Of a stretch of DNA of 64,000 nt, positions 3,022 through 25,104 are shown piece by piece. Location of the stretch: assembly GCA_016937175.1 (NCBI GenBank), contig JAFGWL010000013.1, positions 18,821-82,820 of the forward strand. The letters are read 5' to 3'. Under the pieces are notes generated by a model that saw only the letters and a program-made list of their open reading frames with translations, was not told the origin of the DNA and searched no databases. Both the position numbers and the translations under genes were made by a program. This DNA comes from Candidatus Mcinerneyibacteriota bacterium. Its GTDB lineage: Bacteria; Macinerneyibacteriota; Macinerneyibacteria; Macinerneyibacteriales; DSCS01. Numbering within the stretch: position 1 is the first letter of the stretch; each line of letters opens with the position of its first letter.

Positions 3022-4320
3022 TTACAGGATTTCAGCGGCCAGAGAGGCCAGCATACTTCGTTCGCTTTTGACCAGGGTAATATGGCCGAAGATCCTCTCC
3101 CCCTTGAAGCGCTGGATGAGGTAGGTCAGGCCGTTGGATTCCGCATCCAGGTAAGGATTGTCTATCTGGTGGGGGTCTCCGGTGAGGATGATCTTGCTGT
3201 TTTCCCCTGCCCGGCTTACGATGGTCTTGATCTCATGAGGGGTCAGGTTCTGAGCCTCATCTATGAGGATGAACTGGGAAGAGATACTCCTTCCACGGAT
3301 AAAGGTCAGGGCTTCCAGTTCGATTATATCAGATGTCAGGAAATAACCCCTGTTCTTTTTCCCCAGATGGTTGGCGTCTACGACAAAATCCAGGTTGTCG
3401 AAAATGGGCTCCATCCAGTTTTCCAGTTTATTCTCTTTGCTTCCCGGAAGGTAGCCGATGTCACGCCCCATGGGCATAATGGGACGCATGACGAGGACTT
3501 TTTTGTATTTTTGCTCCTCTGTCACCTTGTGGAGTCCGGAAGCCAGTGTAAGAAGAGTCTTTCCAGTCCCTGCCTGGCCTATCAGAGTCACCAGTTTGAC
3601 ATCGTCGTCCAGAAGAAGTTCCAGGGCATAGGATTGCTCACGGTTGAGGGGTTTGATTCCCCAGGGATAGATCCCCTGGCTCTTCAGAGGGACTAGCTTC
3701 TCCCCTTCACAGCGGGAAGCCAGAGATTCCCGTCCTTCGGCGGTGATATTGATCATCTGGTTCGGGTAGAAGAGGCCGGGAGGGCATTCCAGACTGCCTT
3801 TGCTGGAAAAGGATTCCCATTGGCCGGGGCCGGCTGTGTACTCCCCTGTCCCGGCATAGAGTTCATTGAGGTCGATCTTGGTGTGTTCATAGACTTCAGC
3901 CTTAATGGATAAAGCTTCGGCCTTGACCCGGGCGTTGATATCCATGGAGACAAAGACGACATCTTCGTACCCTTTGTCCTGAAGGTGTCTGGCTGCCATG
4001 ATGATGCGGTTGTCTGTGTTGCGAAGGTCGATCCCCTCAGGAAGGGGCGTCTCAAAATCAATGAGGATAAAGAGCTTTCCCCCCTCGTCATTGAGGGAGA
4101 TCCCGTTGAGGAGATTGTCGCCTTTGCTCAGAGAGTCGATAGAGCGGATGACGCGCCGTGCGTTTCGGCCCCGTTCGCCCAGGTCGGACTTGAAACTGTC
4201 CAGCTCTTCCAGGACATCGATGGGAATATAGACGAAATTTTCCTGGAAATTAAAGAGAGAATGAAAGTCATGCAGAAGCACATTCGTGTCAAGGACAAAA
4301 TGCTTGACCCGCTCCTTCAT
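3022..4320 (-). CDS. PIN-domain plus PhoH-like ATPase fusion (PhoH2 family)
   Basis: N-terminal PIN (VLDTNVLLHD...), central Walker A GQAGTGKT, PhoH signature ILTGDPHQID, Walker B FILIDEAQN. Confidence 0.85.
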   Translation of the reverse strand: MKERVKHFVLDTNVLLHDFHSLFNFQENFVYIPIDVLEELDSFKSDLGERGRNARRVIRSIDSLSKGDNLLNGISLNDEGGKLFILIDFETPLPEGIDLRNTDNRIIMAARHLQDKGYEDVVFVSMDINARVKAEALSIKAEVYEHTKIDLNELYAGTGEYTAGPGQWESFSSKGSLECPPGLFYPNQMINITAEGRESLASRCEGEKLVPLKSQGIYPWGIKPLNREQSYALELLLDDDVKLVTLIGQAGTGKTLLTLASGLHKVTEEQKYKKVLVMRPIMPMGRDIGYLPGSKENKLENWMEPIFDNLDFVVDANHLGKKNRGYFLTSDIIELEALTFIRGRSISSQFILIDEAQNLTPHEIKTIVSRAGENSKIILTGDPHQIDNPYLDAESNGLTYLIQRFKGERIFGHITLVKSERSMLASLAAEIL

Positions 4321-4322
4321 TC

Positions 4323-4736
4323 TCAGCGATACCTCTTTGTCATGACCAGCCGTGAGCCGTGGCTCCCCTGTTTTAATTTGACGTCATCCATATAGGTTTT
4401 GATGATAAAAAGCCCCCTGCCGTGGATTGCTGTCTCGTCGGGGAGCTGGAACGCCTCTTCATCCAGAAAGGCTCCCCCCCCTTCCGGGTTGGAATCTTCG
4501 ACAGAGAGAGAGATGATCTCTTTTTCCAGTGAGAGATCCACATAGATCGGCTTCAAAGCCTCTTCGTGATTTCCGTGGATGATGGCATTACTGGCCGCTT
4601 CCGCCAGGGAAGCGACCAGAGTGCCTATCAGGTCTGAGTTGATATCATTACGTTCAAGAAACAGCTCCACAGAGTCCAGTAGGGTTTCGAGGTAATCCAG
4701 AGATGACGGGAGCTGCAGTTTGATGAATTCAGCCAT
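4323..4736 (-). CDS. anti-sigma factor-like serine protein kinase (RsbW/SpoIIAB-type GHKL ATPase)
   Basis: 137 aa; N-box EAASNAIIHG, G-box HGRGLFIIK; immediately downstream of STAS gene (2-nt gap). Confidence 0.75.
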   Translation of the reverse strand: MAEFIKLQLPSSLDYLETLLDSVELFLERNDINSDLIGTLVASLAEAASNAIIHGNHEEALKPIYVDLSLEKEIISLSVEDSNPEGGGAFLDEEAFQLPDETAIHGRGLFIIKTYMDDVKLKQGSHGSRLVMTKRYR

Positions 4737-4738
4737 GT

Positions 4739-5083
4739 TCAGCGGGTCATATCTCTTAAAGCGTCGGCCTCCGAGTCGTAGCAGTCGAACAGAGTCAGGA
4801 GCTTTGTGATGGTCAAAAGGTCTTTGATACGCTGTGTGATCTTGACCAGGCTCATCTGCCCCTCTTTGGATTTAAGTGTCGTATACGCTGCGATGAGGAC
4901 TCCCAGGCCTGTGGAATCCATAAAAGGAACATCTTCAAAGTCGACGATGACCTTGACAAAGCCGTCTTCCACAGCCTTATTGATGGCCTCTTTGAGGGAC
5001 ATGACCTTTTCACCGCTGACGATCTTCCCGTGGGGGCGGATCATCACTATGTTATTGGATTTTTTCTCGACATCGATCTTCAT
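4739..5083 (-). CDS. STAS-domain anti-sigma factor antagonist (SpoIIAA/RsbV-like)
   Basis: 114 aa; conserved phosphorylatable-serine motif DFEDVPFMDSTGLGVL. Confidence 0.8.
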   Translation of the reverse strand: MKIDVEKKSNNIVMIRPHGKIVSGEKVMSLKEAINKAVEDGFVKVIVDFEDVPFMDSTGLGVLIAAYTTLKSKEGQMSLVKITQRIKDLLTITKLLTLFDCYDSEADALRDMTR

Positions 5084-5111
5084 GTAAATCCTCCTTTCAA
5101 TCTTTCACTAA

Positions 5112-5139
5112 ATTATAGCAGATGTTTTTTTCTGCGCAA
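5112..5139 (-). promoter_or_regulatory. sigma70-like promoter (TTGCGC-16-TATAAT) for STAS/RsbW/PhoH2/upp/uraA operon
   Basis: On minus strand: TTGCGC (5134-5139) ... 16 nt ... TATAAT (5112-5117), followed by GGAGG RBS and ATG of STAS gene at 5083. Confidence 0.45.
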
Positions 5140-5144
5140 TATCT

Positions 5145-5696
5145 TTATCCCGTTTCCGAAGGCGAAAAATCATCTTTACAGAGGGTGGCTGTAGAGAAAA
5201 AATGATGGAGTTCATATAAAAGATTTTCCGAAAAGAGGGGCCGTTTTTCCAGGATCTCTTCTTTTTCCCAGAATCGTGTTTCTTCGATCTCTTCCGGATC
5301 AAAACAGACGGTTTCTCCCCTGTAATCAGCGATGTAGAGGGAGACAAGCTCCCGCTCACGGGATGATTCCCAGATATAGCGCGTTTTGAAGAGAGCCTGC
5401 GACGGGAAAAACCCAATCTCTTCAAGAGACTCCCGTTTCAGGGCCTGGTAAAAGGTCTCACCCCAGGAGACATGGCCGCCTACGGCAGTATCCCATTTTC
5501 CAGGCTGGATCTGTTTCTTGCAGCTTCTCTTCTGTAAGAGAAAACGTCCCTCTTTATCAATGATCTGAAGATGGATAACGGGGTGCAGGATCTTTGTTCC
5601 GTCGTGACACTGGCCACGGGAGACTTTTTCCAGAGGCCTTCCCTCCGGTGAGCAGCGGATGAGCCATTCCATAGGCTCAATTCTAATGCGGGACAT
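5145..5696 (-). CDS. NUDIX hydrolase
   Basis: 183 aa; Nudix box GGHVSWGETFYQALKRESLEEIG matches GX5EX7REUXEEXGU. Confidence 0.8.
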   Translation of the reverse strand: MSRIRIEPMEWLIRCSPEGRPLEKVSRGQCHDGTKILHPVIHLQIIDKEGRFLLQKRSCKKQIQPGKWDTAVGGHVSWGETFYQALKRESLEEIGFFPSQALFKTRYIWESSRERELVSLYIADYRGETVCFDPEEIEETRFWEKEEILEKRPLFSENLLYELHHFFSTATLCKDDFSPSETG

Positions 5697-6990: not shown

Positions 6991-9900
6991 TCAATTCCCT
7001 GTATACTTCATGGAACTCCAGTATGCCGGGTGAGGGAAGAAAAGGCGCAGTTCTTTTTTTGCTTTCCAGAGGGCCAGAGGCGCCGGAGTCCCTTTGTCAA
7101 GTTCCCGGTAGAAGTGTTTGAAGAGCATTCCCGTAGCCACATCAGAGATTCGCCAAAGCGAGGAGATGACCGCGCTCTCTTCGGTTTTCATAAAGGCTCT
7201 GTCCAGGGCTGTGACTTCATCCCCCTCCCCCAGGACTCCGACTCCCGAATCACAGGCACTCAGGACCGCCAGGCGGGCTTGAGGGGTGAGATTGCGTATC
7301 TCTTCCACGTCGAACCTGCCGTCCAGATGGCCGCCGGAAGCAAAGAGAAGATGGGAAAGAAGTGAATAATGGCGGTTAAAGTAGCCATGGCAGGCAAAAT
7401 GGATGATGTCATAATCCTTTGAAGCCATCTTTTCTCTGACCGCCTCTTCTGTGGCCGCTTTCCCTTTGAGGATATCGGTGATGGGCCCGAAGATAAAACG
7501 GATCTCTCCGGCTTCTTTCTGGGCAAAATAGAGTTCCAGGTCGGGATTGTCCAGGTCCGGGTTTCCCACAGCCAGGATCGAACGGAAAGGCCCTGCCCCG
7601 GAGTTTTCCCTGAGCATGAAAAGGTCCGGGATATAGGTCACCGGAAAACGGTCGATAAGGTACTCTCCCTTTTTTACAAGAAGAGAGAAAGGCAGATAGT
7701 TGAGGACCCCTGAAGGCGATACGACCAGGTGGCCTGACTTCGGCAGGTCAAAGGGCAGGAGAAGGTCTCCCAGACGCGATGACTCCCCGCGGATAACCTC
7801 TTCGCCGGCTGTTTCAGAGATCAGGTCGCGCAGACGGCTTACCTCTTCATTCAGGCGCTCTTTTCCCGCCGGGATGGAGTAACCGCTGATGGCTCCGTCC
7901 AGCCAGGACAGGAGAAGAGTCCGGTTTTCAAGGACAAGAAAAGACAGCACCAGGGTTCCCTGTGGAATCGTACCGGCGAAATCCCGCTCCCCGGGGATGT
8001 CAGCGGATCCCTTCTGATTCATGGCGATCTCAAGTTTTAAACGGTCCAGGTCTTCTTTTCTCGCTTCATATTCTCGCACGATGCTGGCGTCGTTTTTCAT
8101 GAGAAGGTCGAGATGGTAGAGCTCTTTTTTCAACTTATCAAGGGCCTCTTCCTCCTCAGGCTTCAGGGTCGATTGCCCCGCCCCCAGGGGATTATTGACC
8201 AGGAAGGCTATCCGCTTCACCTTTTCCGTCGTAAAAAAAGACTTCTCAAATAGTCCTGCATCAAAATAGGCTTCAGCCAGAGAGCGGTAGATACCCTGAT
8301 ATTTTTTCAATAGCTTGACTTGAAGCCCGGGAGAGTCCATATCCTCCGCCATGGCTTCCAAAAGGGAAACCGCCATTTCAAAGTGATCGATCCGGCCTGA
8401 AAAGAGACCGAGATGATTGGCGATCTCCAAAGCCGTGGATATATCCCTGATGTCAAGAGCTTCCTGCCTGGCTTTCTCCAGCATGGGTATATCCTTTGTC
8501 ACAAGCCCTGTGTAGTAGGAGGCATACATGGACTCTTCAGGAGTCAACTGGCCAAGATCCTTCATCTTCCCGAGATAAAGAAGCGCCTGCCCGGATGACC
8601 CGATCTGATAGGAGGTAATGGCCAGATGACGGTAAAGGCCTTTCAAAAGATAGCTGTTGTTCCGTGCCTGAGCTTCAGGAAGCTCACTTTCAAGAAGTGC
8701 CAGCGCTTCTTCCGGGCGTCCCGTTTCTCTCAGGATCAGGGATTTATTGATGATGAGAGCCGTCGTCTCCCCCACGATATTGTATCGGCGGGCTGTTTCC
8801 AGCGCGCCATCTATCTCTGAAAGAGCCAGATGCTCACTTCCCGTCTCCAGAAGAGCCAGGGAGAGAAGGTTTTTGAGAATGACTCGTTCAGCCTGGTTCT
8901 CTTTTTCCGGGAGGGATTGCAAAGTACGGCGGATGTAATCCAGACACTCATGATAGGCATTCGTCTTGAAGAGAAGATTGGCCATGCCGATGGCGGCATT
9001 GATCCTGATATTCCGCTCCGGAGATTCCGTGAGAGGCCGAAACAGAGCTTTAGCCGTCTCATAGTCCCCCTCTCTCAGGCTGATGGACCCCTTGAGGAGT
9101 TCCACAGTCTGCTGTTTGTCCCGGGAACGGACTTTTTCAAGAAGAGCCCTTGCCTTTTCATTTTCATTGAAGTACTTATAGTGGATCACAGCCCGTCTGA
9201 TCAGGCTTTCTTCCGTATTGACAAGGTTCAGAAGCTCTGAAGCTTCTTCGTATTGGCCGTTTTTTTCATAAAGAGAGGCCAGCTGGAGTGTCTGGTCACC
9301 GGGGATCCGCCCCTCTTTGTAGAGGGCTATGGCGCGGCTGTAAAATCCCGTTCTCTCATAGAGGATGGCCAGATTTTTCTCGTAAGCCGATTCAGGCAGC
9401 CCCTTCAGGGATATATACTCTTTCAACTCTTGGCGGATCAGTTCCGGGTCCCTCAGATGGTCTGTTGCGATGGTGATCATGAGGTAGAGGCGGCTTGTCA
9501 GGGTGGCTGTATCCTTTCGGGCCTTTAAAAGGGGGATCAAATTGGCCAATTCCCGGAAAGAACGGCTGTAATGCCCCTCTTTGTAATAGAGATAAGCCCT
9601 GCGGTCGATCTCACTTGTCTTTTCAGACAAAAAGGAAGCAAACTGTTTTTCTGTCATCTCCCTGTAGGAGAAGGTAATCTCCCCTATCTTGATTGTGTTA
9701 AGGCCTGCATAGATCAAAATATCTGTAAAAAGCCGCATAGAAATCGGAGAAGTAACCTCAGCTTCATCGACCCACAAGCCGTCCACCGTCAGGCCCTCCT
9801 TTAAAAACTGCAGCCCTGTATAGTCTCCTGCCTTACTGGCATAGGGATTGACCTGGTCACTCTCCAGGCTCCCGGAAAGACGGAAATAACCGCTGCTTTC

Positions 9901-12900
9901 CTCGATCAGGGGTTTCCCCTCTGACAAGGACCACGGCCGGGGCATATGACGTCCTTCATAGAGAAGATAGAGCTGGGAGAGCGAAAAGGCATTATAGGCG
10001 GAAGAGCGGAACGAATCAGCCTTGCGGTCTATGATAAAAGTGGCATCCGGCGGAATATCCTGCTCGATACGGGCTCTGTCCCGTGTAAGCAGAAGAAATT
10101 TCTTCTCCAGCCGGTAGGCGATGATATCATCGGGAGAGAGCATCCTGCGGAGGCTCTCCCCTTTCAGGAAGGGGATACCTGAGATGAGTCTGGCGCGTTG
10201 ATCCAGTTTCTCCGCGTAGCGGGATGCTTCTGCAAGGTCTTCACGGCCCAGATAGTAGAAATAGTTGCCCAGATTCACCGTATCCAGCTGGGAAAAGAGC
10301 TCAGGTTTATAGAAAAGGTAGCGTATCCTCTCTTCAAAGGACTCGAACCCGGACAAAAGGCGCACAAGACGATCGAAGTCGGTTTTCTCCGTTACGGCAT
10401 CTTCCAGAAGCTGAAAGGGAATATAGCCTTTGTCCCTGAAAAAGGCTGCAAACCGGGGAGCTGTTTTATCATCGGCCCGATTGATGGAATCAGATGCTTT
10501 TTCAAGGAATTCGAAACATGATTCGGGAGAAGATCTCCTTGTCAAAAGCGCTGCATCTATATTGATCAGAAAATCAAGAAAAACATCTTCTCCCTGCAGG
10601 CTCATAAGAGAAGAGAGGACGTCGTCTCCGAGAAACCGGTGCAGGAAAAGGTAAAAAAGACGCTTCATGGCGGGACTCACTCCGGGCCTTTGGAGGAGAG
10701 AACGGATCTTCTCATAGCGCCTGAAATCCTTCTCCTGTTTGTCTACAGCTTCCCTGAGGGTGGAGAAAGACTCCTCCCGGGGAGCCGTCTTCATAAAAGC
10801 CAGAATCATCATCCATTGATGAAGCTCCTGCAGATCCGGATCCCTGATGGCTTTCACCCGTTCCTCCATGCCTTCCAAAATTCCCAGGGGATCCGGAGAT
10901 GAGTCCATATTAAGGAAGAGTGATGAAAGCTCGTTGATCAGCAGCCCCTTCTGGAACTTGTTCTCACGTGAGATCTCCAAAGAGCGGTCCAGATACTCCT
11001 GAAGGAGCTGATCATTGCCGATACGATAATAGAGAGAAGCGAAATTATTGGTGATGACCATATCCGCATAGGGGCTGTCGGAAACAGCGAGTTTTTCTTT
11101 GAACAGGTCCACGGCTGCTGACATCTCCCCTTTGTTCATGGAGGCCGCAGCCATGATGGAAAGAAGAAGGTTCCGTTCCATCTCCGGGGTAAATCCCCGG
11201 TAAGCACCGGTCTCATGAGCTCCTGAGAGCGCCATGGCAATGCTTATATCCAGGAGGCCTCCCCCCTCTTTTTTGCGTGCCTGATCCCCCTGCAGAAGGT
11301 CCAACCCCTTTTTGGCATGAAAAAGAGCCTTGTCGGTATCGTCTCCCAACAGGGCATTGTAGGCGATATTCCTGTGATAAAGGACCTGCCGGACAGGGTC
11401 TTCTCCCGAAAGCCCCAGGGAAAGAGCCCTTTCAAAGTAACGGACAGATTCCAGATGTTTTCCTGAAAGAGAAGTGACCATTCCAAGATGTTTGAGAATA
11501 TAATCCTGCCCCCGGATATCCTGGTCTTCCAAATAGAGAGTCAAAAGTTTCCGGTCGAAGGAGGCTGTCTCTTCATATTGATTGAGATTGTAATGGATGG
11601 TGGATAAGCGGAGCAGATACTGTTTTTCCTCCTGACGTCCCTGATAAGGAGGTATCTTTCCTGACATGGCGGTATAATAGTCAAGCGCCTTGTCAAAGAT
11701 CCGGAGTTTGAAGTAGATGTTGGCCATGTTCTTTTCAAAATAGCCTCTGAGAAGTCTATCGTCTGTATCGGCCAGGGCCAGGCCTGTCTTGTACTCTCCC
11801 AGGGCCATTTCCAGGTATTGCCCCTGTCCAAGACGCTCCATCTCCTCGTAAAGCCATCCCAGGGTCAGATGCATGATCCCCTCCTGGGGACGACGGCCCA
11901 CAGAGCTTACGACCAGATCCAGGGCCTCTTCATAGGCTGCGAGGGTGAGGTCAGTTCTCCCTCGCACTTCGTAGGATGTCCCCACATAGGTCAGGGCAAA
12001 CCCGTAAAGGTACTGCATGAGAGGGTCTTCCGGATGATCCAGGTATAGGGCTTTATAACGCCCTGCTGTCTCCATGATATTTCCCAGGAGGTAATCCAGC
12101 CGGATCATGGCCCGGTTGATCTCCAGATCCCCGGGCAAGGCCTCCCTCAAAAGAAGGATTATCTTTCGTGCCTTCAGAAGGTCCTCTTCTTTTTCATACT
12201 CTTCAGCCACGGCTACAGCCCTGGACCTCAGAAAGGAGACGATATCTTTATAATAGACGCCGTTATAGCCTGATGTGAGAATATTTGAAAAGGCTGTTAT
12301 CCCTTCTTCTGTCTCATAACGGCTGTAGATCTCAAGCAGGATGGGATAGAGCATCTCCCGGTTCTCATCTTCCCGGCCCTTGACCTTATGCCACTCCTGA
12401 AGTGCGCCGGCATAGTCTCCGACTACAAGGAGAGAATCCATGAGTGCCCCTGTGGCTCCGTAAAAGAGAGTGGAGCCGGGAGGGTTCTCATCCCGTATCC
12501 GGCTCAGAATATTGAGGGAATAGCCGCTCCCGGCTTTGTATTCCGCCCTCACCTTCAGATAAAGGCTCACAGCTTCGGTCACGTAACGGTCACGGTAGAA
12601 GGCGTTATTGATTATCTTTTCCAGGAGTCCGAGTGCCGGGGTTTTCCGGCCTGTCATCAGCGCTGAGCGGGCAGCTAAGAGGGAAAGTTTGTTTTTCAGC
12701 CCGGTGGAGCGGATCCTGTTTTCCAGTGTAGAAAACGTCTCCAAAACAGCGCGATGCTCACCGGCTTCATAAAGACGGAAAATCAGGCGCTCAGACATCC
12801 CCTCTTCATAAAGAGAGGGAGCCCCGGCAATATCTTCTTTTGTGACCAGAGGTTTCAAAAGAGTCCCTTCGGCCAGGTAGGAAAATTTATCCGCCTCCCT

Positions 12901-13938
12901 TTCAGCCAGACGCGGGTATCCTGTTTCCAGGAGCTTATTGATATAATGTGTCAAAAAAAGAAGTGATTCGCGGGGCGAAAAGAGAGAGACGACTTTCTCG
13001 GCCAGAGGGAGGATCTCCTCTGGCTTGTCTGTCCGCTCCAGGTAATTGTTGTAATGGTAGACCGAAGAAAAACTGTAGGCAAGGTCTTCCCTGCTTTTAT
13101 AGGAGAGTTTCGGGCCCTTTGTAAAAAAAAGGGTATCACTTGAAAGCGTAAAACTATGAAGTCCTTCTGCTCCAAAGAGATAATGCTCTCTGCCCTCCTC
13201 CGATGAAGTGAGAAAGGCTGTCTGCAGATTCTCTTCCCTTCCGGGCACATCTTCTGCCAGTGGATAGGAGAGATAATAGAGTTTCCCTGTGACAGGATCA
13301 TAAAAAAGGTCTGATTTGGGCAAAGGAGAAGTCTTCAGAACCCGGATATTCCCGGTGGCGGTCTCCACGGACAGGATCTCTCTGTCTCTGAGAAGATAGA
13401 CCTCCCCTTCTCCAAAGGCAAGGTCTTCCGCGCCGGAGAACTCAGACCGATAGACCTCCTTCCCCTCACGGCTTAAGATGACAAGGTCTGTCTTTCCCTC
13501 TTCGCGCGACAGGGCTGCGATCAGGGAGCCGTCGGGAGAGAACCGGGGAGACATCTCCCGGACGAAAGGCCTGCCCAGATTTGTCATCTTTCCTCCCTGC
13601 AGAAGCAGGATGTCCCCCAGGACATCATACTGGTCCGAGGTGACAAGCAGGCTTCCCCTGCTGTCAGTATCTTCCAGGCTCTCTTCATAAGATGTTGAAA
13701 AAAGAGCCTCGCTCATTTGTGCGGTAAAATCATATTTGATGACTTGACGGTTGTTGTTGTCGATAACGGTATAGTAGAGACACCCTGTCTCCGGGCAGAA
13801 ACGCACAGATTCTATTCCCCCCAGCTGGACATCGATCTGCCCCTCAGGAGGCATCTCCTGCACGAGTCCGCTTTTGAGAGTACATCCTCCGGCTCCCAGA
13901 AGAATCAGGAGGAGAAACAGAAACGTTTTACGGTGCAC
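6991..13938 (-). CDS. giant (2315 aa) lipoprotein: TolB-like beta-propeller (PD40) N-terminus, very long TPR array, C-terminal CHAT (caspase-like) peptidase domain
   Basis: Signal peptide/lipobox MHRKTFLFLLLILLGAGGC; PD40-like RFSPDGSLIAALSREEGKTDLVIL; hundreds of residues of TPR-like repeats; C-terminal CHAT signature DYDIIHFACHGYF...RLAVLSACDSGVG...ISSLWRISD; GTG start at 13936-13938 with GGAAGGAGAAGA RBS, overlapping stop of upstream gene. Confidence 0.8.
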   Translation of the reverse strand: MHRKTFLFLLLILLGAGGCTLKSGLVQEMPPEGQIDVQLGGIESVRFCPETGCLYYTVIDNNNRQVIKYDFTAQMSEALFSTSYEESLEDTDSRGSLLVTSDQYDVLGDILLLQGGKMTNLGRPFVREMSPRFSPDGSLIAALSREEGKTDLVILSREGKEVYRSEFSGAEDLAFGEGEVYLLRDREILSVETATGNIRVLKTSPLPKSDLFYDPVTGKLYYLSYPLAEDVPGREENLQTAFLTSSEEGREHYLFGAEGLHSFTLSSDTLFFTKGPKLSYKSREDLAYSFSSVYHYNNYLERTDKPEEILPLAEKVVSLFSPRESLLFLTHYINKLLETGYPRLAEREADKFSYLAEGTLLKPLVTKEDIAGAPSLYEEGMSERLIFRLYEAGEHRAVLETFSTLENRIRSTGLKNKLSLLAARSALMTGRKTPALGLLEKIINNAFYRDRYVTEAVSLYLKVRAEYKAGSGYSLNILSRIRDENPPGSTLFYGATGALMDSLLVVGDYAGALQEWHKVKGREDENREMLYPILLEIYSRYETEEGITAFSNILTSGYNGVYYKDIVSFLRSRAVAVAEEYEKEEDLLKARKIILLLREALPGDLEINRAMIRLDYLLGNIMETAGRYKALYLDHPEDPLMQYLYGFALTYVGTSYEVRGRTDLTLAAYEEALDLVVSSVGRRPQEGIMHLTLGWLYEEMERLGQGQYLEMALGEYKTGLALADTDDRLLRGYFEKNMANIYFKLRIFDKALDYYTAMSGKIPPYQGRQEEKQYLLRLSTIHYNLNQYEETASFDRKLLTLYLEDQDIRGQDYILKHLGMVTSLSGKHLESVRYFERALSLGLSGEDPVRQVLYHRNIAYNALLGDDTDKALFHAKKGLDLLQGDQARKKEGGGLLDISIAMALSGAHETGAYRGFTPEMERNLLLSIMAAASMNKGEMSAAVDLFKEKLAVSDSPYADMVITNNFASLYYRIGNDQLLQEYLDRSLEISRENKFQKGLLINELSSLFLNMDSSPDPLGILEGMEERVKAIRDPDLQELHQWMMILAFMKTAPREESFSTLREAVDKQEKDFRRYEKIRSLLQRPGVSPAMKRLFYLFLHRFLGDDVLSSLMSLQGEDVFLDFLINIDAALLTRRSSPESCFEFLEKASDSINRADDKTAPRFAAFFRDKGYIPFQLLEDAVTEKTDFDRLVRLLSGFESFEERIRYLFYKPELFSQLDTVNLGNYFYYLGREDLAEASRYAEKLDQRARLISGIPFLKGESLRRMLSPDDIIAYRLEKKFLLLTRDRARIEQDIPPDATFIIDRKADSFRSSAYNAFSLSQLYLLYEGRHMPRPWSLSEGKPLIEESSGYFRLSGSLESDQVNPYASKAGDYTGLQFLKEGLTVDGLWVDEAEVTSPISMRLFTDILIYAGLNTIKIGEITFSYREMTEKQFASFLSEKTSEIDRRAYLYYKEGHYSRSFRELANLIPLLKARKDTATLTSRLYLMITIATDHLRDPELIRQELKEYISLKGLPESAYEKNLAILYERTGFYSRAIALYKEGRIPGDQTLQLASLYEKNGQYEEASELLNLVNTEESLIRRAVIHYKYFNENEKARALLEKVRSRDKQQTVELLKGSISLREGDYETAKALFRPLTESPERNIRINAAIGMANLLFKTNAYHECLDYIRRTLQSLPEKENQAERVILKNLLSLALLETGSEHLALSEIDGALETARRYNIVGETTALIINKSLILRETGRPEEALALLESELPEAQARNNSYLLKGLYRHLAITSYQIGSSGQALLYLGKMKDLGQLTPEESMYASYYTGLVTKDIPMLEKARQEALDIRDISTALEIANHLGLFSGRIDHFEMAVSLLEAMAEDMDSPGLQVKLLKKYQGIYRSLAEAYFDAGLFEKSFFTTEKVKRIAFLVNNPLGAGQSTLKPEEEEALDKLKKELYHLDLLMKNDASIVREYEARKEDLDRLKLEIAMNQKGSADIPGERDFAGTIPQGTLVLSFLVLENRTLLLSWLDGAISGYSIPAGKERLNEEVSRLRDLISETAGEEVIRGESSRLGDLLLPFDLPKSGHLVVSPSGVLNYLPFSLLVKKGEYLIDRFPVTYIPDLFMLRENSGAGPFRSILAVGNPDLDNPDLELYFAQKEAGEIRFIFGPITDILKGKAATEEAVREKMASKDYDIIHFACHGYFNRHYSLLSHLLFASGGHLDGRFDVEEIRNLTPQARLAVLSACDSGVGVLGEGDEVTALDRAFMKTEESAVISSLWRISDVATGMLFKHFYRELDKGTPAPLALWKAKKELRLFFPHPAYWSSMKYTGN

Positions 13939-14503
13939 TCTTCTCCTTCCAGCTGCCCGAGGCGTCCTGAATCAGCCAGCCTGGCCTGGCCTCGTCATGC
14001 ATTTTATGAGCAAAGATCTCTTCCACTTTTCCCAGGTCATTCTCGCTTAATCCCTGGGTGATGCTGATAATGCGGTTATAGATGATCCTCCGGTCACGGT
14101 TCTCTTCCTGCAAAAACCGGTCGACCAGACGGGCAAGCTCTTTGTCCTCATCCAGCCGTCGGGAATCCCTGATCTCCACATACCCGCTGTTGGACTCCCC
14201 TATGATCTTCATATCCATAAAACGCTGATAGTCGTCTTTATTGTAGAGTCTGTTCTGATAGGCTAAAAGAGATCTCCTTTTTTCATCGGAAATCTCGGCG
14301 ATATCATCGGGGAGAGCCCTGACAGAGACAAGCAGCATAGGATCAGCCCCGATAAAGGAGTAGTTGCCCAGAACCTGGTTTTCCAGAGAGGTCTTCTCTC
14401 CCACCAGAGTGATCTCGATCTTCGCCTTGGGGCTTAAGAGAGAACACCCCGCAATAGCCAGCCCCGCGGCGAGATATGAGATGAGAAGAACGGCTTTGTT
14501 CAT
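13928..14503 (-). CDS. YdbL (DUF1318)-like periplasmic lipoprotein, possibly a YnbE-YdbL fusion
   Basis: Lipobox LAIAGC; C-terminal RRIIYNRIISITQGLSENDLGKVEEIFAHKMHDEARPGWLIQDASGSWKEK matches DUF1318 (YdbL) pattern; located between the YdbH-like gene and the CHAT gene, as in the E. coli ydbH-ynbE-ydbL order. Confidence 0.55.
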   Translation of the reverse strand: MNKAVLLISYLAAGLAIAGCSLLSPKAKIEITLVGEKTSLENQVLGNYSFIGADPMLLVSVRALPDDIAEISDEKRRSLLAYQNRLYNKDDYQRFMDMKIIGESNSGYVEIRDSRRLDEDKELARLVDRFLQEENRDRRIIYNRIISITQGLSENDLGKVEEIFAHKMHDEARPGWLIQDASGSWKEKSAP

Positions 14504-14515
14504 GACACTCCTTTC

Positions 14516-17137
14516 TTAAAAGACAAGACCTGCTTCTTTGAGGATACTGTCCAGAGGAATACGCCTGATGGGTTCGACATCCAGCCCTCCTATAAGAAAA
14601 CCCAGGGCGAATGAGACTAAATTGGATCGGCGGAATCCGAAGGTGGGATGGATGTTGACAAACCCGTTGGATGTGGTGACCAGCACATTTTTGGGTACTA
14701 CCCCTACCATATTAAGCTTCTTGCGCATGCCTTGTATCTGGGGGTTTTTCTTGTCCGGGTCGAGAGAGAGGAGAGCTTTGTCCAGGACATCGCTGTCGAT
14801 CTTTGTAATATCCCAGAATCCTTCCACTTCCGTTCCTTTACCCTTAAAGCGGGAAACCATGGAGAGAAGAGAGGTTCCTCCTTTGCCTGTCCCTTTTCTG
14901 ATGTTCAGGTCGATGGCATTGAATTGAATATCGTAACTCAACACGTCCAGGTCGGCCGAAAGAGCCCCTCCGATCTGGCCATCCAGAAAACGGCCATAAA
15001 AAGTGTGGACAGAGGCTTTTTTATTGACAGCGCTCAGAGAAGCCGCGAAATCTCTGATGACGAAATGCTGAAAACCGCCCTTCTCCATCCTGAAATTGAT
15101 CTCTTCTCCCTGCCTCAACTCCCCGGGGGCGAATGGCCCGAAGTAGTAGGGAAGCGAAAGAGTCAGGCCCGTGACTGAGATATCCCTGTCGTATTGGAGA
15201 GATCCCATTGAACAGTCAAAGACAGCCTTCCATTTTTTCTGAGTTCCTTCAAACCAGAGCCTCCCGTCGATTTCCTCCAACCGGATCTTCTTTTCCGGAT
15301 AAGAGAGAGATACACCGTCCATGGTGTTGTCTGTCTTGATGAACGGGGCAGCGAGGGTCCCTGAGAGATCCAATGTGAAGTTGACAGTCCCCTTTGATTC
15401 GATTGCCGGCAGTCCCGGGGCGAAGGAGATGAGTTCAGGGATATCGATCTTGGAATGGGAGAGAGTCAGATTGATGTTTTCTTCCCCCCACTTTTCCAGG
15501 GAGCCGTTTACAAGGAAGCGGTTGTTCTTCCCCAGTTTCAAAAAAAAGTTATCGCAGTAAAGATACTTCTGCATAGGAGCGATGATGAGCCCTCCTCCCA
15601 TGCTGACTTTGGGGATCTTGACCGGCGAAAAATCAGTCCGGAAATCGATCTCCTGGGCTCCTGCCGAGATCAGCAGAGTCAACCCTTTGGAAATGGAACC
15701 GGTGACTTCTGCCAGGGCGTTCAGTTTTGCATAAAGAGGAATATCAAAATAGTTATAAAAGGTGAAATCACGCATCTGGAGGTTAAGCTGCAATGAATCC
15801 AGGTCCGGGGTATTACCCCGAAGTTTCAGCATTCCCCCGTAGAGGGAGAAGGAGAAATCTTCCAGGGTACATGCTCCTGTCATGCGCTGCGGATCCAGAT
15901 GGCCCTTCACGGCCAGATGGATATTCTTCAAAGGCTCTGTCATGCGGGAGACTAAAAGAGAAGCGATCTCGGCTTCGGCGCTGATCTCCAGGTTCTCAGG
16001 GGTCCCTCCCAATGACAGGGTCACCAGAGCGTCTTTTAAAGAGGCTTCGCTGGCTGATGCCGAAGGGATACGGAGGATCACCTTGCCTCTCATCGTCTCC
16101 TTCCGCGCTTCTCCCCGGGTCCGGATGTAACCTTCTACAGAGACCGGGGGAAAGCCGGGAATAGCCCGCCGGAGGATACTGGTGAGCCCGTCCAGGTCAA
16201 TGTCCGAAAAAAGACGGCTGAAGGAGAGGGACTCAAACTTCATCGCATCATCAAAGAGGATTTTTCCCCGTATTTCGGCCAATGTCAACTGGTTCACAGC
16301 CACAGTAAAGTCTCCTGCTGTCAGGCTCTTCCTGGTTGTGCTGAGAAGATAGGATCCTTTCTGTGTCAGGGTCACCTCTCTTTCGGGTTCTCTGGCAGAG
16401 ACAGCCTCCTTCAAAGCCAGAGAGCCGTCTGAGACAGCCGCCTGTAAGGATACTCCGTAGGGGAGAAAAAGCCTGTCCGGTCCGTTACCCAGCGTGACAT
16501 TGTTATCATTAGTGCGGAGTCTGAAATAGCCTGTAAGTCCCTGAAATGTCCCGTCAGGAGCTTCAACAGCGCCCTCAAGGGAAAACGAGCCGGAATGAGA
16601 GACTCCCTTCCCCTGATAAAGAAGGCGAAGATTCCTGACATCAAGAGACCTGACCCGGAAACGGGGTATCTTTTCGGGGATCAGAGGCTTTTTCTCAAGA
16701 GGTGTCTCTTCCTCTTTCCCTCCAGGGACACTTTCCTTTATTCGCCCATCTGAAAAAGAGGCCTCCTTCATGGAAAAGGTGACATCTTCCAGTGATATCG
16801 ACTCGATTTCAACAAGCCCCCGAAAGAAAGCGAAGGGAGAAATCCGGATATGAATACGGCCTGCCGAAAGGTCTCCCCGGGGAAGAGAAAGGGTGAGGTC
16901 TTTTAACGTCAGGGAAAAAGGCAGTCGGGAAACGGACGATCCTGCAGAAAGGGGTAAAAAACGGGAGACAAGTGAGCTGTTCAGGACTCCTGGTGAAAGA
17001 AGGCTGTTGAGAAGAGAGAAGAAGAAAGCCATATGGACCAGAAAAGAAACAACGACTCCGCCTGCAGCAAGAAGAAGAGCTTCCCCCTTCCGGCCTTCCC
17101 TCTGATCTTGCTTTTTATCGTGTTTCAGACGACTCAT
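14516..17137 (-). CDS. AsmA-like family protein, YdbH-like (intermembrane lipid-transport family)
   Basis: 873 aa (E. coli YdbH is 879 aa); single N-terminal TM anchor then long beta-rich periplasmic region; followed by YdbL-like gene. Confidence 0.55.
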   Translation of the reverse strand: MSRLKHDKKQDQREGRKGEALLLAAGGVVVSFLVHMAFFFSLLNSLLSPGVLNSSLVSRFLPLSAGSSVSRLPFSLTLKDLTLSLPRGDLSAGRIHIRISPFAFFRGLVEIESISLEDVTFSMKEASFSDGRIKESVPGGKEEETPLEKKPLIPEKIPRFRVRSLDVRNLRLLYQGKGVSHSGSFSLEGAVEAPDGTFQGLTGYFRLRTNDNNVTLGNGPDRLFLPYGVSLQAAVSDGSLALKEAVSAREPEREVTLTQKGSYLLSTTRKSLTAGDFTVAVNQLTLAEIRGKILFDDAMKFESLSFSRLFSDIDLDGLTSILRRAIPGFPPVSVEGYIRTRGEARKETMRGKVILRIPSASASEASLKDALVTLSLGGTPENLEISAEAEIASLLVSRMTEPLKNIHLAVKGHLDPQRMTGACTLEDFSFSLYGGMLKLRGNTPDLDSLQLNLQMRDFTFYNYFDIPLYAKLNALAEVTGSISKGLTLLISAGAQEIDFRTDFSPVKIPKVSMGGGLIIAPMQKYLYCDNFFLKLGKNNRFLVNGSLEKWGEENINLTLSHSKIDIPELISFAPGLPAIESKGTVNFTLDLSGTLAAPFIKTDNTMDGVSLSYPEKKIRLEEIDGRLWFEGTQKKWKAVFDCSMGSLQYDRDISVTGLTLSLPYYFGPFAPGELRQGEEINFRMEKGGFQHFVIRDFAASLSAVNKKASVHTFYGRFLDGQIGGALSADLDVLSYDIQFNAIDLNIRKGTGKGGTSLLSMVSRFKGKGTEVEGFWDITKIDSDVLDKALLSLDPDKKNPQIQGMRKKLNMVGVVPKNVLVTTSNGFVNIHPTFGFRRSNLVSFALGFLIGGLDVEPIRRIPLDSILKEAGLVF

Positions 17138-17204: not shown

Positions 17205-17242
17205 GAATTAATGAAAAAATAAAGGGGAGCTTAACGCTCCCC
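17205..17242 (-). terminator. rho-independent terminator of valS
   Basis: GGGGAGC-ttaac-GCTCCCC hairpin (stop codon TAA of valS in the loop) followed on the minus strand by UUUAUUUUUUCAUU. Confidence 0.6.
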
Positions 17243-19666
17243 CCATTTGATGGCCATGAGAAGGTCTCCCTCGCCGCACCTGGCGTCCGGCTCTTTAACC
17301 GGCGCCCGCTTTTCAACCTTCAGAAGAGAATCTATCTGACGGAGGACCCCCTCTTCGAACTCCTTTTTGGCATATCCCTCATCGTCCAGTAATGCGATGG
17401 GATGAGCCAGAGAAAGTTTATGTTCTGATTTAGCTTTTCTTATAAATTCCACATATCTGAGGACTTTCTCTCCCTCTTCAGCTGCTCCGTCGAAAGCCTG
17501 ATAGTTTTCAGGCAGAGGCCAGGGGGCCAGATGAATGGACTTTTCGGGTAAAAAGTCAGTGAAATAGAGTTGATAGATCTCTTCTGTGATATGAGGCAAG
17601 AAGGGAGCGAAGAGGCGCAGAACCCCGTAAAGGACTGTAAAAAGAGCCCACTGACTCCCCTTTTTCTCCTCTCGGGTCCCTTCCTTGATCTTGCCTTTCA
17701 CCAGTTCGATATAATTATCGCAGAGGTCTTTCCAGAAAAAAGTCTCGATGGACTGAAGTGCAAGGCCGTATTCATAGCGCTCGAGATATTCGGTGGCCGT
17801 TCCTGCCGTGGACCGGAAAGATTCCAGGATCCAGCGGTCCACACTGTTAAGGCTCCCCCCTTTTTCGCCTGAATAACCTTCCAGGTTCATGATGGCGAAT
17901 TTTGAGGCGTTCCAGAGTTTTGTGACGAGTTTACGCCCGTCTTTAAGGACATCTTCTGAAAAAAAAGTGTCCATCCCCAACCGCGACCCTGCCGTCCAGT
18001 ACCTGACCGGATCGGCTGAATGCTGAGCTACCAGAGCCTGGGGAGTCTGTCCTGCATTTCCTTTGGATTTGGATATCTTTTTGCGCTGAGGGTCCAGGCT
18101 GTGCCCGGATATCATGATGTTCTTCCAGGGTGGCACTCCATGATGGTAATAGGACTTGACGATGGTATAGAAAGCCCATGTGCGGATGATGTCATGTGCC
18201 TGGGGGCGCAGGTCCATGGGGAAGATCTCCTTCATCCGGTCGTCTTTTTCGCCCCATTTCCCGTTTATCTGAGGCGTCACCGACGAGGTGGCCCAGGTGT
18301 CCAGGACATCTCTCTCGGGGACAAAAGAGGTCCCTCCACAGGACGGACAGGGCTTTCCCGGGCCATCTTTCAGGGGGTTGACCGGAAGGGAGCTTTTATC
18401 GGCCACAACAGGCTCCCCGCAATCGTCGCAGTACCAGAGGGGGAACGGTACTCCAAAATAACGTTGTCTGGAGATCCCCCAGTCCCATTTGAGATTGGAA
18501 ACCCAATGTATATAACGCTCTTTCATGAATTCAGGGTACCATTTAATGGAATCAGCCAAGCGGATAAGCTCTTCTTTATGCTCGAGGATCTTGATAAACC
18601 ACTGTTTTTTAACGATAAACTCCATCTCCCGCCCGCAACGGTCATGAGTGTTTACAGGATGGGTGACATGGCGTTTCCCGCGTACGAAACCGCCCTCTTC
18701 CAGGTCGTTTATGATGGCTTTTCGCGCCTCTTTGATCTTCATCCCCTCGTAGGGACCCGCCAGGGTATTCATGCGGCCGTTTTCGTCTATGGCCTGGCGC
18801 AGCTCCAGGTTGTGGGTATGATACCATTCCACATCGGTGGAATCGCCGAAGGTACAGCACATGACCGCCCCGGAGCCCTTCTCCGGATCGACTTTGTCAT
18901 CGGGACGGATAGTCACATCGATATCAAAAAGCGGTGGGCGGACAGTCATCCCGTGGGCCTTTTTATACCTGGGGTCTTCCGGATGGACGAAGACAGCGGT
19001 CAGCGCCGGAAGGAGTTCAGGGCGCGTGGTGGAGATGATCAGTTCCTCTCCGTTTTCCAGCGTAAAGGCGATATCCACGAATTCCGAATCGAACTCTTTG
19101 TCTTCTGTCTCAGCCTGGGCCACAGTAGTCCGACAATGGGGACAATAGAGCGCCGGGGTAGCCTTATGGACCACATAGCCCTTTTCAAAGAGATCGATAA
19201 ACGAACGCTGGGAGATCCGGCGTGAACGCTCATCGATGGTGGAATAGAGCTGATTCCAGTCAGCCGAGAAACCCAGGCTTTGCCAGAGAGCCTTGAATTC
19301 CGCTTCTACTTCAGCAGAGACCTCAAGACAATGAGAGATGAACTCCTCCCTGTCCATGGAGGAGGCGTTTTTTTTCAGCTTTTTCTCCACAAGGCGCTCG
19401 GTAGGAAGCCCGTTATCATCAAACCCGAAGGGATAGAAGACATTGTAACCCCGCATGCGTTTGTATCGCGTCATGATCTCAGCCTGGGTATAGGAAAAGA
19501 CATGGCCGATATGCAGCTGTCCCGAGACCGTGGGGGGAGGAGTGTCTACTGAATAGACGGGCTTATCCCCTTTCCCTTCGTATGAAAAGATATTCTCCTC
19601 TTCCCAGAAACGTTGCCATTTTTTCTCTGAATCCAATCCGCCGTAATATTTTGGCAGCTCTTTCAT
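17231..19666 (-). CDS. valS: valine--tRNA ligase (short form lacking C-terminal coiled-coil)
   Basis: Class I aaRS: PPPTVSGQLHIGH (HIGH), KISKSKGN (KMSKS); editing-domain region TTRPELLPALTAVFVHPEDPRY resembles ValRS TRPETMxGDTAVAVHPEDERY; 811 aa. Confidence 0.65.
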   Translation of the reverse strand: MKELPKYYGGLDSEKKWQRFWEEENIFSYEGKGDKPVYSVDTPPPTVSGQLHIGHVFSYTQAEIMTRYKRMRGYNVFYPFGFDDNGLPTERLVEKKLKKNASSMDREEFISHCLEVSAEVEAEFKALWQSLGFSADWNQLYSTIDERSRRISQRSFIDLFEKGYVVHKATPALYCPHCRTTVAQAETEDKEFDSEFVDIAFTLENGEELIISTTRPELLPALTAVFVHPEDPRYKKAHGMTVRPPLFDIDVTIRPDDKVDPEKGSGAVMCCTFGDSTDVEWYHTHNLELRQAIDENGRMNTLAGPYEGMKIKEARKAIINDLEEGGFVRGKRHVTHPVNTHDRCGREMEFIVKKQWFIKILEHKEELIRLADSIKWYPEFMKERYIHWVSNLKWDWGISRQRYFGVPFPLWYCDDCGEPVVADKSSLPVNPLKDGPGKPCPSCGGTSFVPERDVLDTWATSSVTPQINGKWGEKDDRMKEIFPMDLRPQAHDIIRTWAFYTIVKSYYHHGVPPWKNIMISGHSLDPQRKKISKSKGNAGQTPQALVAQHSADPVRYWTAGSRLGMDTFFSEDVLKDGRKLVTKLWNASKFAIMNLEGYSGEKGGSLNSVDRWILESFRSTAGTATEYLERYEYGLALQSIETFFWKDLCDNYIELVKGKIKEGTREEKKGSQWALFTVLYGVLRLFAPFLPHITEEIYQLYFTDFLPEKSIHLAPWPLPENYQAFDGAAEEGEKVLRYVEFIRKAKSEHKLSLAHPIALLDDEGYAKKEFEEGVLRQIDSLLKVEKRAPVKEPDARCGEGDLLMAIKWGER

Positions 19667-25000: not shown

Positions 25001-25104
25001 TCGATAAGGGCTACAGTCTGACGGCTGATGCCCAGTTCCGCTGCCAGGTTTTCCTGGGTATATCCCGCCGCTTCACGATATTTCCTGATCCGCTCACCGT
25101 CCAT
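22057..25104 (-). CDS. 1015-aa fusion: XRE-family HTH, ASKHA (actin-like) ATPase domain of GlmL/MutL family, C-terminal ~440-aa extension with barrel-sandwich-like repeats
   Basis: N-terminal [41 protein letters not shown]; phosphate-1 [20 protein letters not shown], phosphate-2 [15 protein letters not shown]; C-terminal repeats like [20 protein letters not shown] at 25102-25104 with GGAGG RBS. Confidence 0.7.

Follow-up and report, generated by a model that had tools for sequence, protein, structure and literature searches.

Organization of the Three-Gene Locus

The stretch analyzed here (the window) comprises 64,000 nt of contig JAFGWL010000013.1 from a Candidatus Mcinerneyibacteriota bacterium (assembly GCA_016937175.1). 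Its minus strand carries three co-directional genes, as stated in an original prediction made from the sequence alone. In the order of transcription, they encode a predicted AsmA-like intermembrane bridge protein (gene 1, positions 14516–17137, ATG start, 873 aa), a lipoprotein with a long-form DUF1318 domain (gene 2, 13928–14503, ATG start, 191 aa), and an exported lipoprotein of 2315 aa, which combines a degenerate propeller region of the PD40 type, a TPR scaffold and a CHAT peptidase domain (gene 3, 6991–13938, GTG start; hereafter the giant). As this trio recurs in other genomes, lipid transport to the outer membrane may have a protease partner that has so far not been described.

Genes 1 and 2 are spaced by 12 nt. 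Genes 2 and 3 overlap by 11 nt (13928–13938), with the GTG of gene 3 (13938–13936) preceding the gene 2 TAA (13930–13928) by 5 nt. This overlap had already been recognized and is a translational-coupling arrangement. A Shine-Dalgarno-like run, GGAAGGAG, is found directly upstream of the GTG, and the respective junctions of genes 2 and 3 in relatives of the trio are similarly tight or overlapping.

The upstream neighbor of gene 1 is valS (17231–19666). A terminator-like hairpin of the minus strand (17222–17244; 9 bp stem with 6 GC, followed by a T-run) spans the valS stop codon (17231–17233) and, by its sequence, appears to mark the 5′ boundary of the three-gene unit. No comparable minus-strand hairpin was found inside the unit (from 17137 to 6991), and the gene located downstream, encoding a major facilitator superfamily (MFS) transporter, is convergent with gene 3. 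On the basis of these three features, a single transcription unit is plausible and the genes probably form one operon.

The Giant Propeller-TPR-CHAT Protein

The giant begins with a signal peptide and a lipobox (MHRKTFLFLLLILLGAGG-C19, i.e., LLGAGG-C19), and the GTG at 13938–13936 is the sole start codon that retains both. A divergent propeller-like region of the PD40/Tricorn_N type follows (residues ~16–355; 12874–13893, minus strand). With regard to the TolB-like PD40 propeller of the original prediction, the protein itself has one sub-threshold PD40 repeat (residues 127–152, E 0.002, Pfam) and reaches 11 bits against the TolB equivalog model, the cutoff of which is 343. The propeller assignment is therefore based on profile–profile homology to relatives bearing these domains: residues 16–355, as a window-clade profile, match the N-terminal profile of the distant clade in hhalign (99.5%, E 5.9e-23), and the N-termini of distant giants contain PD40, Tricorn_N, and Tricorn_2nd domains. 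These domains and a periplasmic location are shared with TolB/Tricorn-type PD40 proteins. In contrast to TolB, the propeller here belongs to a very large protease with several domains and not to Tol-Pal.

The TPR or helical-repeat scaffold extends over residues ~393–2064 (7747–12762, minus strand) and shows matches to TPR_12, TPR_7, TPR_19, and related models, which fall at residues ~700–880 and 1530–1750 (Pfam). A profile of 41 distant giants aligns colinearly to residues 392–1010 (E 3.5e-55) and 1425–2314 (E 5e-91) of gene 3. As this profile is composed of distant members only, the homology of the family covers the scaffold and is not limited to CHAT. The long TPR array that had been proposed is thus found both by Pfam and by colinearity with distant members.

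The CHAT peptidase domain occupies residues 2065–2314 (6997–7746, minus strand; PF12770, 161.9 bits against a cutoff of 24, E 3e-47). It includes the motifs HFACHG (residues 2180–2185, nt 7401–7384) and LSACDSG (residues 2226–2232, nt 7263–7243), which hold the catalytic dyad His2184 (codon 7389–7387) and Cys2229 (codon 7254–7252) at the positions that had been named. The His and the Cys are each kept in 54 out of 58 family members, the other four being gaps or misalignments. A single-sequence phmmer search of this domain against the PDB gave no match. A profile of 21 CHAT domains of the family, on the other hand, matched the TPR-CHAT chains of Craspase, which are the closest solved relatives by sequence; the similarity is restricted to a stretch of ~110 residues that surrounds the dyad (family profile, E 1e-6 to 1e-11). 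Counted through the profile alignment, the family His and Cys fall on H585 and C627 of 7x8a_D, that is, the catalytic dyad of Craspase, in which C627A/S abolishes cleavage (PMC9729208). The proposed correspondence of H2184 and C2229 with CHAT catalytic positions is therefore upheld.

All giants inspected carry an N-terminal export signal. A lipobox is present in the window clade, in Myxococcota, and in some members of KSB1, and an ordinary signal peptide is found in Nitrospirota and others. Judging from these sequence features, gene 3 is likely to encode an exported, active protease.

The giant resembles TPR-CHAT/Csx29 of Craspase (type III-E CRISPR) and separase in having a CHAT caspase-like fold after a TPR scaffold, and by analogy with Craspase its protease would probably be held in check by partners. 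Unlike the Craspase protein, it is exported or lipidated rather than cytoplasmic, begins with a propeller region, and is ~three to four times larger. In addition, no cas genes were found in the surveyed neighborhoods, and the giant has no CRISPR or Cas7-11 context. Thus, it does not belong to the Craspase type of TPR-CHAT proteins.

The Long-Form DUF1318 Lipoprotein

Gene 2 has a lipoprotein signal ending in LAIAG-C20, and the lipidated Cys is 100% conserved in 85 long-form sequences. Both gene 2 and gene 3 encode lipoproteins, as had been proposed. The DUF1318 domain (PF07027) covers residues 92–188 with 44.9 bits (cutoff 27), and the same model matches all 16 aligned members of the gene 2 family. 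BLASTP against Escherichia coli YdbL gives an E value of 2e-5. In the AlphaFold2 (AF2) model (predicted local distance difference test, pLDDT, 80.5), a disordered tether (residues 19–37; short and disordered or strand-prone at 21–35) is followed by a confident helix (40–53), two more helices, and the core. In Foldseek, this core matches the crystal structure of E. coli YdbL (28oj) with a TM-score (target) of 0.83, a root mean square deviation of 2.4 Å and a probability of 1.00. The DUF1318/YdbL signature first read from the sequence is in agreement with both the Pfam score and the structural match.

The N-terminal part contains a near-invariant motif, E36-K-T-x-L-E-N-Q-x-x-G-x-Y48. Besides this motif and the lipidated Cys, the residues S60-V-R62, D90-D91, G102-E103, E134-N135, R138, W185, and K188 are 95–100% conserved over the 85 sequences, if the Val of S-V-R (see below) is left aside. 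In pairwise alignment, E103, N135, R138, W185, and K188 correspond to E35, N58, R61, W104, and K107 of YdbL. Substitutions of E35, N58, W104, and K107 impair the function of YdbL, W104 and K107 are predicted to touch YdbH, and the Arg is counted as an interface residue (PMC13464000). Gene 2 departs from the soluble YdbL form of ~90 mature residues in being lipidated and in having a conserved N-terminal extension of ~70 residues. Based on its sequence, it is treated here as a member of a long-form DUF1318 subfamily with a true YdbL fold.

The S-V-R tripeptide (S60-V61-R62; window positions 14318–14326) shows 100% conservation of Ser and Arg and 87% of Val. It is located in a low-confidence loop of the AF2 model, which links the N-terminal helix to the YdbL-like core. 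Specificity for Arg is found in several peptidases of clan CD. According to the model, the S-V-R loop could be an attractive candidate for a protease cleavage site.

A fusion of YnbE and YdbL in gene 2, as suggested originally, was not recovered. None of the 16 family members matched PF13617 at E≤10, with E. coli YnbE as a control reaching 59 bits, and BLASTP against YnbE found nothing. Based on the model, a YnbE-like N-terminal segment in gene 2 is structural speculation.

The AsmA-Like Bridge Protein

The AF2 model of gene 1 (pLDDT 81.6) shows a transmembrane helix at residues ~10–46 and then ~45 consecutive strands, which form one long β-groove sheet up to residue ~780. The C-terminal region (~680–870) is conserved and of mixed α/β structure. 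The best PDB matches in Foldseek are the bridge-like lipid-transfer protein LPD-3/BLTP1 (9cap_A, E 1.3e-6) and TamB in TamAB (probability 0.97–1.0). Both hallmarks of the AsmA-like superfamily, that is, an N-terminal inner-membrane anchor and a continuous periplasmic β-groove (“β-taco”), are found in gene 1 by AF2 and Foldseek.

At the sequence level, a search of the local Pfam copy gave no match for gene 1 with the cutoff relaxed to E≤10, and gene 1 shows weak matches to TamB and GspN of NCBIfam (E ~4e-4). An orthologue with 73% identity has faint precomputed matches to TamB_N and AsmA. When 1.84 billion cluster representatives were searched exhaustively with HMMER, only 21 relatives came up, of which the remote ones share with gene 1 the N-terminus and the C-terminal ~150–200 residues. 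The domains detected on the remote relatives are DUF748 (11/17) and AsmA (8/17), and also TamB or YhdP. Moreover, the curated Pfam models of AsmA, DUF748, or YhdP match seven out of eight upstream partners sampled from surveyed loci of several phyla. Some of the AsmA/DUF748 matches, among both remote homologues and positional equivalents from other phyla, exceed the gathering score. The predicted fold, the Foldseek matches, and the domains of remote homologues consequently point to an AsmA-like repeating-β-groove protein of the AsmA/DUF748/TamB_N type, anchored in the inner membrane.

The more specific assignment of the 873-aa protein as YdbH-like does not hold. Gene 1 gave no match to PF11739 at E≤10, when E. 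coli YdbH as a control scored 969.8 bits, and BLASTP against E. coli YdbH produced no significant alignment. The same model matched none of 17 remote homologues of gene 1 and none of the 11 proteins that hold the equivalent position at other loci; as mentioned above, the models matched by the relatives are AsmA, DUF748, YhdP, and TamB_N.

Gene 1 shares with TamB and YhdP the N-terminal transmembrane anchor and the repeating-β-groove fold, and its relatives match the TamB, YhdP, and DUF748 models. Nevertheless, gene 1 of the window clade is much shorter than either TamB or YhdP, and, in contrast to the TamB-TamA system, there is no Omp85 partner gene. The partners here are the DUF1318 lipoprotein and the CHAT giant.

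Conservation of the Trio across Phyla

Close orthologues of the module (58–100% identity) are fully syntenic, including kdsA-kdsD-kdsC-valS upstream, and are thus uninformative on linkage. Distant giants have 2300–3000 aa, show 25–35% identity over parts of their length and contain PD40, Tricorn_N, TPR, and CHAT. A long-form DUF1318 gene, or its unannotated equivalent, is located directly upstream in five out of seven of them, and in four of these five, a large gene precedes it. In the case of L005, the giant is preceded by an AsmA/DUF748 protein (1411 aa) and then a DUF1318 protein (172 aa). The respective pairs are a 1201-aa protein and a DUF1318 protein of 184 aa in L010, proteins of 1818 and 191 aa in L007, and proteins of 1114 and 178 aa in the P0019 contig, where the smaller gene overlaps the giant by 4 nt. 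In L009, DUF1318 only is found upstream. The large gene is annotated as AsmA/DUF748 in one of the four cases, and two more are AsmA-like by iterative search: the large proteins of L005, L007, L010, and L006 joined the AsmA-like family of gene 1 in iterative profile searches. Similarly, the 191-aa protein of L007 aligns as long-form DUF1318.

Among the remaining distant giants, L008 has neither partner beside it. L006 has no DUF1318 gene upstream, and its AsmA-like gene is located ~1.4–2 kb downstream of the giant. The order at this locus (L006:19782-23782) is the giant CHAT homologue, a FecR-like gene, and then the AsmA-like gene of the gene 1 family.

One genome per species (GTDB) was also scanned with the long-form DUF1318 alignment. 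Relatives were found in 226 of ~185,000 species genomes, and 80 loci were retrieved, the six-frame open reading frames (ORFs) of which were scored with hidden Markov models (HMMs) for the AsmA-like family, the N-terminus of the giant, its CHAT domain, and long-form DUF1318. The giant is directly downstream of long-form DUF1318 in 63 of the 74 loci with ≥1.5 kb of downstream sequence, mostly abutting or overlapping it. An AsmA-like gene is directly upstream in 44 of the 73 loci with ≥1.5 kb of upstream sequence. When both flanks were available (n = 68), 40 loci had the full trio, 18 the DUF1318 gene and the giant only, three the AsmA-like and DUF1318 genes only, and seven neither partner. The trio count is a lower bound, because the AsmA-family HMM misses some upstream candidates, such as a transmembrane protein of 1418 aa in L069. 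The seven partnerless genes have unrelated neighbors, for instance LutABC-like genes, and their partners may be located elsewhere in the genome.

The surveyed taxa include Ca. Mcinerneyibacterium (phylum Ca. Macinerneyibacteriota), which is the nearest named relative of the window, KSB1/Zhuqueibacterota, Caldithrix (Calditrichota), Nitrospirota, Nitrospinota, Magnetococcales, Nitrotoga, Desulfobacterota, Myxococcota/Bradymonadia, Sumerlaeota, and Gemmatimonas. Metagenome-assembled genomes labeled Caldithrix, Magnetococcus, Desulfosudis oleivorans, and Nitrospira are among the carriers of the trio. The genes flanking the trio vary by lineage. This is an indication that the repeated gene order does not represent one conserved chromosomal block. 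Adjacency without functional meaning, with the giant merely located beside an AsmA-like/DUF1318 pair, could be argued from the fully syntenic close relatives, which carry no information in this respect. It is very unlikely, as the same order recurs in many phyla amid unrelated flanks, with reading frames that often overlap or nearly abut. In addition, the identities spread from 31% to 86%, and this, along with the diverse flanks, speaks against one recently transferred island. The claim that the giant is hard-wired to an AsmA-like/YdbL-like module is therefore strengthened by the survey, with the same trio found in many phyla.

The original prediction also stated that no description of such an association was known, and none was found in the searchable literature. 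In full-text searches, for which the coverage of journals is partial and absence is not proof, no paper joined “CHAT domain” with “AsmA-like,” no relevant paper dealt with DUF1318, and none dealt with periplasmic TPR-CHAT proteins.

The relation to Craspase and the phyletic distribution bear on a different role of the giant, namely as an envelope-stress or anti-phage effector. The TPR scaffold and the propeller would keep the CHAT domain inactive until envelope damage or an invader sets it off; by analogy with Craspase/gasdermin systems, it might then cleave envelope targets, including the bridge, and cause growth arrest or death. The best-studied prokaryotic CHAT proteases belong to conflict systems, in which a change of conformation switches them on (PMC9729208), and the closest solved relatives of the giant come from one of them. 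The distribution is sporadic (226 species genomes, as given above), and toxin–antitoxin genes lie within a few kb of the module in L008 (ParE, PIN, and HEPN) and L028. However, all giants inspected are exported, whereas the characterized conflict-system CHAT proteases considered here (Craspase) act with cytoplasmic Cas effectors. The module of the window clade is in a housekeeping synteny (kdsA-kdsD-kdsC-valS), sequence divergence broadly follows taxonomy, and no mobile-element or defense-island genes stand directly beside the module in the listed loci, as judged by context and not by a search with defense models. An effector function is consequently considered improbable.

In some KSB1 loci (L032:5683-7221 and L034:10658-12217), a gene for a PMT_2/ArnT-like membrane glycosyltransferase of ~515 aa is located between the DUF1318 and giant genes (PF13231, E 6e-10 in L034). 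The inserted gene may point to a connection with the modification of glycolipids in the envelope.

Clan CD includes transpeptidases such as PorU and GPI transamidase. The clan-CD domain of the giant could in principle be a transpeptidase or ligase of this kind, forming a covalent bond between an envelope component and the lipoprotein or some other cargo. The glycosyltransferase insert would be in line with such a reaction, as would a Por_Secre_tail peptidase beside L009, which is of the type IX secretion system (T9SS) type. Both the glycolipid and the T9SS-type neighbors are lineage-restricted, though, and the characterized CHAT members, that is, separase and Craspase, are hydrolases, which leaves little probability for a transpeptidase.

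Comparison with YdbH-YnbE-YdbL and Proposed Function

The module bears on how phospholipids reach the Gram-negative outer membrane and on how AsmA-like bridges are assembled and regulated. In E. coli, the bridge of YdbH is complete only with YnbE, a lipoprotein of the outer membrane (PMC11126948). YdbL binds the C-terminal helix of YnbE and probably YdbH as well; the proportion between YdbL and YdbH/YnbE has to be correct, and YdbL in excess is toxic (PMC13464000). Apo-YdbL is degraded in vitro by DegP (PMC13464000), and the levels of YdbL in E. coli are under the control of this general protease. The toxicity of excess YdbL and its degradation by DegP provide a precedent for proteolytic control.

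The module of the window is similar to YdbH-YnbE-YdbL (PMC11126948, PMC13464000) in having, in what is probably one operon, an inner-membrane-anchored AsmA-like protein of ~870 aa followed by a protein with the DUF1318/YdbL fold, in keeping the key residues of YdbL, and in including an envelope lipoprotein. On the other hand, the AsmA-like protein is outside the YdbH family of Pfam, a separate YnbE is missing, and the DUF1318 protein is lipidated and N-terminally extended. There is also an added, translationally coupled gene for a propeller-TPR-CHAT protease of 2300–3000 aa, which has no counterpart in E. coli. In outline, the module is YdbH-YnbE-YdbL-like (a bridge, a DUF1318 partner, and a lipoprotein), yet it lies outside the YdbH and YnbE families.

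The reading we favor, to which we give about an even chance of being correct, is that of a conserved three-component module of the cell envelope, in which an AsmA-like bridge is joined by a dedicated clan-CD protease, probably acting on the YdbL-like component. The bridge protein would be anchored in the inner membrane and extend in the direction of the outer membrane, as YdbH, TamB, and YhdP do. The gene 2 lipoprotein would dock on or cap its C-terminal end, uniting YnbE-type anchoring and YdbL-type modulation in one polypeptide. The giant may bind the complex of bridge and lipoprotein through its propeller and TPR scaffold, with its CHAT domain cleaving a component of the module. The likeliest substrate would be the YdbL-like lipoprotein, which may be cut at the invariant S-V-R loop, and the cleavage would set the level or the assembly state of the bridge. 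Control by CHAT could then be regarded as a built-in equivalent of the control that DegP has recently been reported to exert on YdbL in E. coli.

Several points weigh against this reading. The trio is common without being obligatory in cis. In 18 of the 68 loci with both flanks, no AsmA-like gene lies next to the DUF1318 gene, in seven the DUF1318 gene is alone, and the distant giants L006 and L008 have no long-form DUF1318 gene beside them. As gene 1 fails the YdbH model, the analogy with YdbH-YnbE-YdbL is carried solely by the DUF1318 partner and the fold class. Furthermore, a YnbE-like gene or domain was not found with PF13617 or BLASTP, and the gap between genes 1 and 2 is just 12 nt. CHAT domains can stay inactive until triggered, and the intact dyad is thus no proof of constitutive activity. 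Finally, whereas the gene structure, the folds and domains, the conservation of the dyad, the export signals, and the cross-phylum linkage are demonstrated here, we infer the formation of a complex, the substrate, the cleavage site, and the direction of regulation.

The architecture of the giant may be interpreted in another way. It could be mainly an outer-membrane-side docking platform for the AsmA-like bridge, with the propeller and TPR scaffold acting as TamA does for TamB or YnbE for YdbH. CHAT would then serve general quality control at the contact site, cleaving other proteins of the envelope and leaving the module itself uncut. The scaffold of ~1600 residues, colinear across phyla, and the lipobox of the giants in the window clade, Myxococcota, and some KSB1 would fit such a platform. 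Gene 1, with 873 aa, is about the size of YdbH, whose length does not suffice to cross the periplasm unaided (PMC11126948), and the giant of L006 stays near an AsmA-like gene even where long-form DUF1318 is missing. However, the giants of Nitrospirota and others carry an ordinary signal peptide without a lipid anchor, so that outer-membrane anchoring is not a constant of the family. The tightest and commonest linkage is with the DUF1318 gene and not with the AsmA-like gene, and the strict conservation of the dyad argues that catalysis is central. We consider a docking platform rather unlikely.

A stronger form of the protease–bridge module, which is unlikely as it stands, would make the caspase-like protease an ancient integral subunit of a widespread class of AsmA-like bridges. 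It would switch the bridge on or off by cleaving the tethered YdbL-like lipoprotein at S-V-R, thereby separating a lipid-anchored, YnbE-like docking segment from a YdbL-like chaperone domain. If true, site-specific proteolysis would gate the transport of lipids between the two membranes in these phyla.

A specific giant TPR-CHAT protease is joined to an AsmA-like/YdbL-like pair and has been retained across many phyla, which makes the module a concrete candidate for the proteolytic control of a lipid bridge. For the CHAT family, otherwise studied as separase, CRISPR-linked, or cell-death proteases, this is an apparently undescribed role in the envelope. The long-form DUF1318 lipoproteins are now a defined family, which may merge YnbE-like anchoring with YdbL-like modulation.

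Neighboring Genes and Other Observations

Past the convergent MFS gene, the minus strand of the window (3022–5696) contains genes for a NUDIX hydrolase, a STAS anti-anti-sigma-like protein, an RsbW-like protein with HATPase_c_2, and a PhoH/PIN ATPase. This cluster is syntenic in all close relatives (e.g., L002:18317-20967). Elsewhere in the window, an ORF of 1015 aa (22057–25104, minus strand) has syntenic counterparts of ~1014–1018 aa, in which HTH_3/HTH_31 is combined with a MutL-family domain in an unusual architecture.

In loci of the KSB1 type without an adjacent AsmA-like gene, a pair of small membrane-protein genes (~130–140 aa) recurs just upstream of DUF1318 (L022:8961-9805, L036:5325-6153, and L051:9464-9844). 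The first of the two looks YtxH-like by eye.

The locus L012 (DSCS01000058.1), deposited as “Bacillota bacterium SpSt-1200,” has the full trio, with a DUF1318 lipoprotein 76% identical to that of the window. The kds (lipopolysaccharide) genes in the syntenic relatives of the clade and the module itself suggest that its phylum label is wrong.

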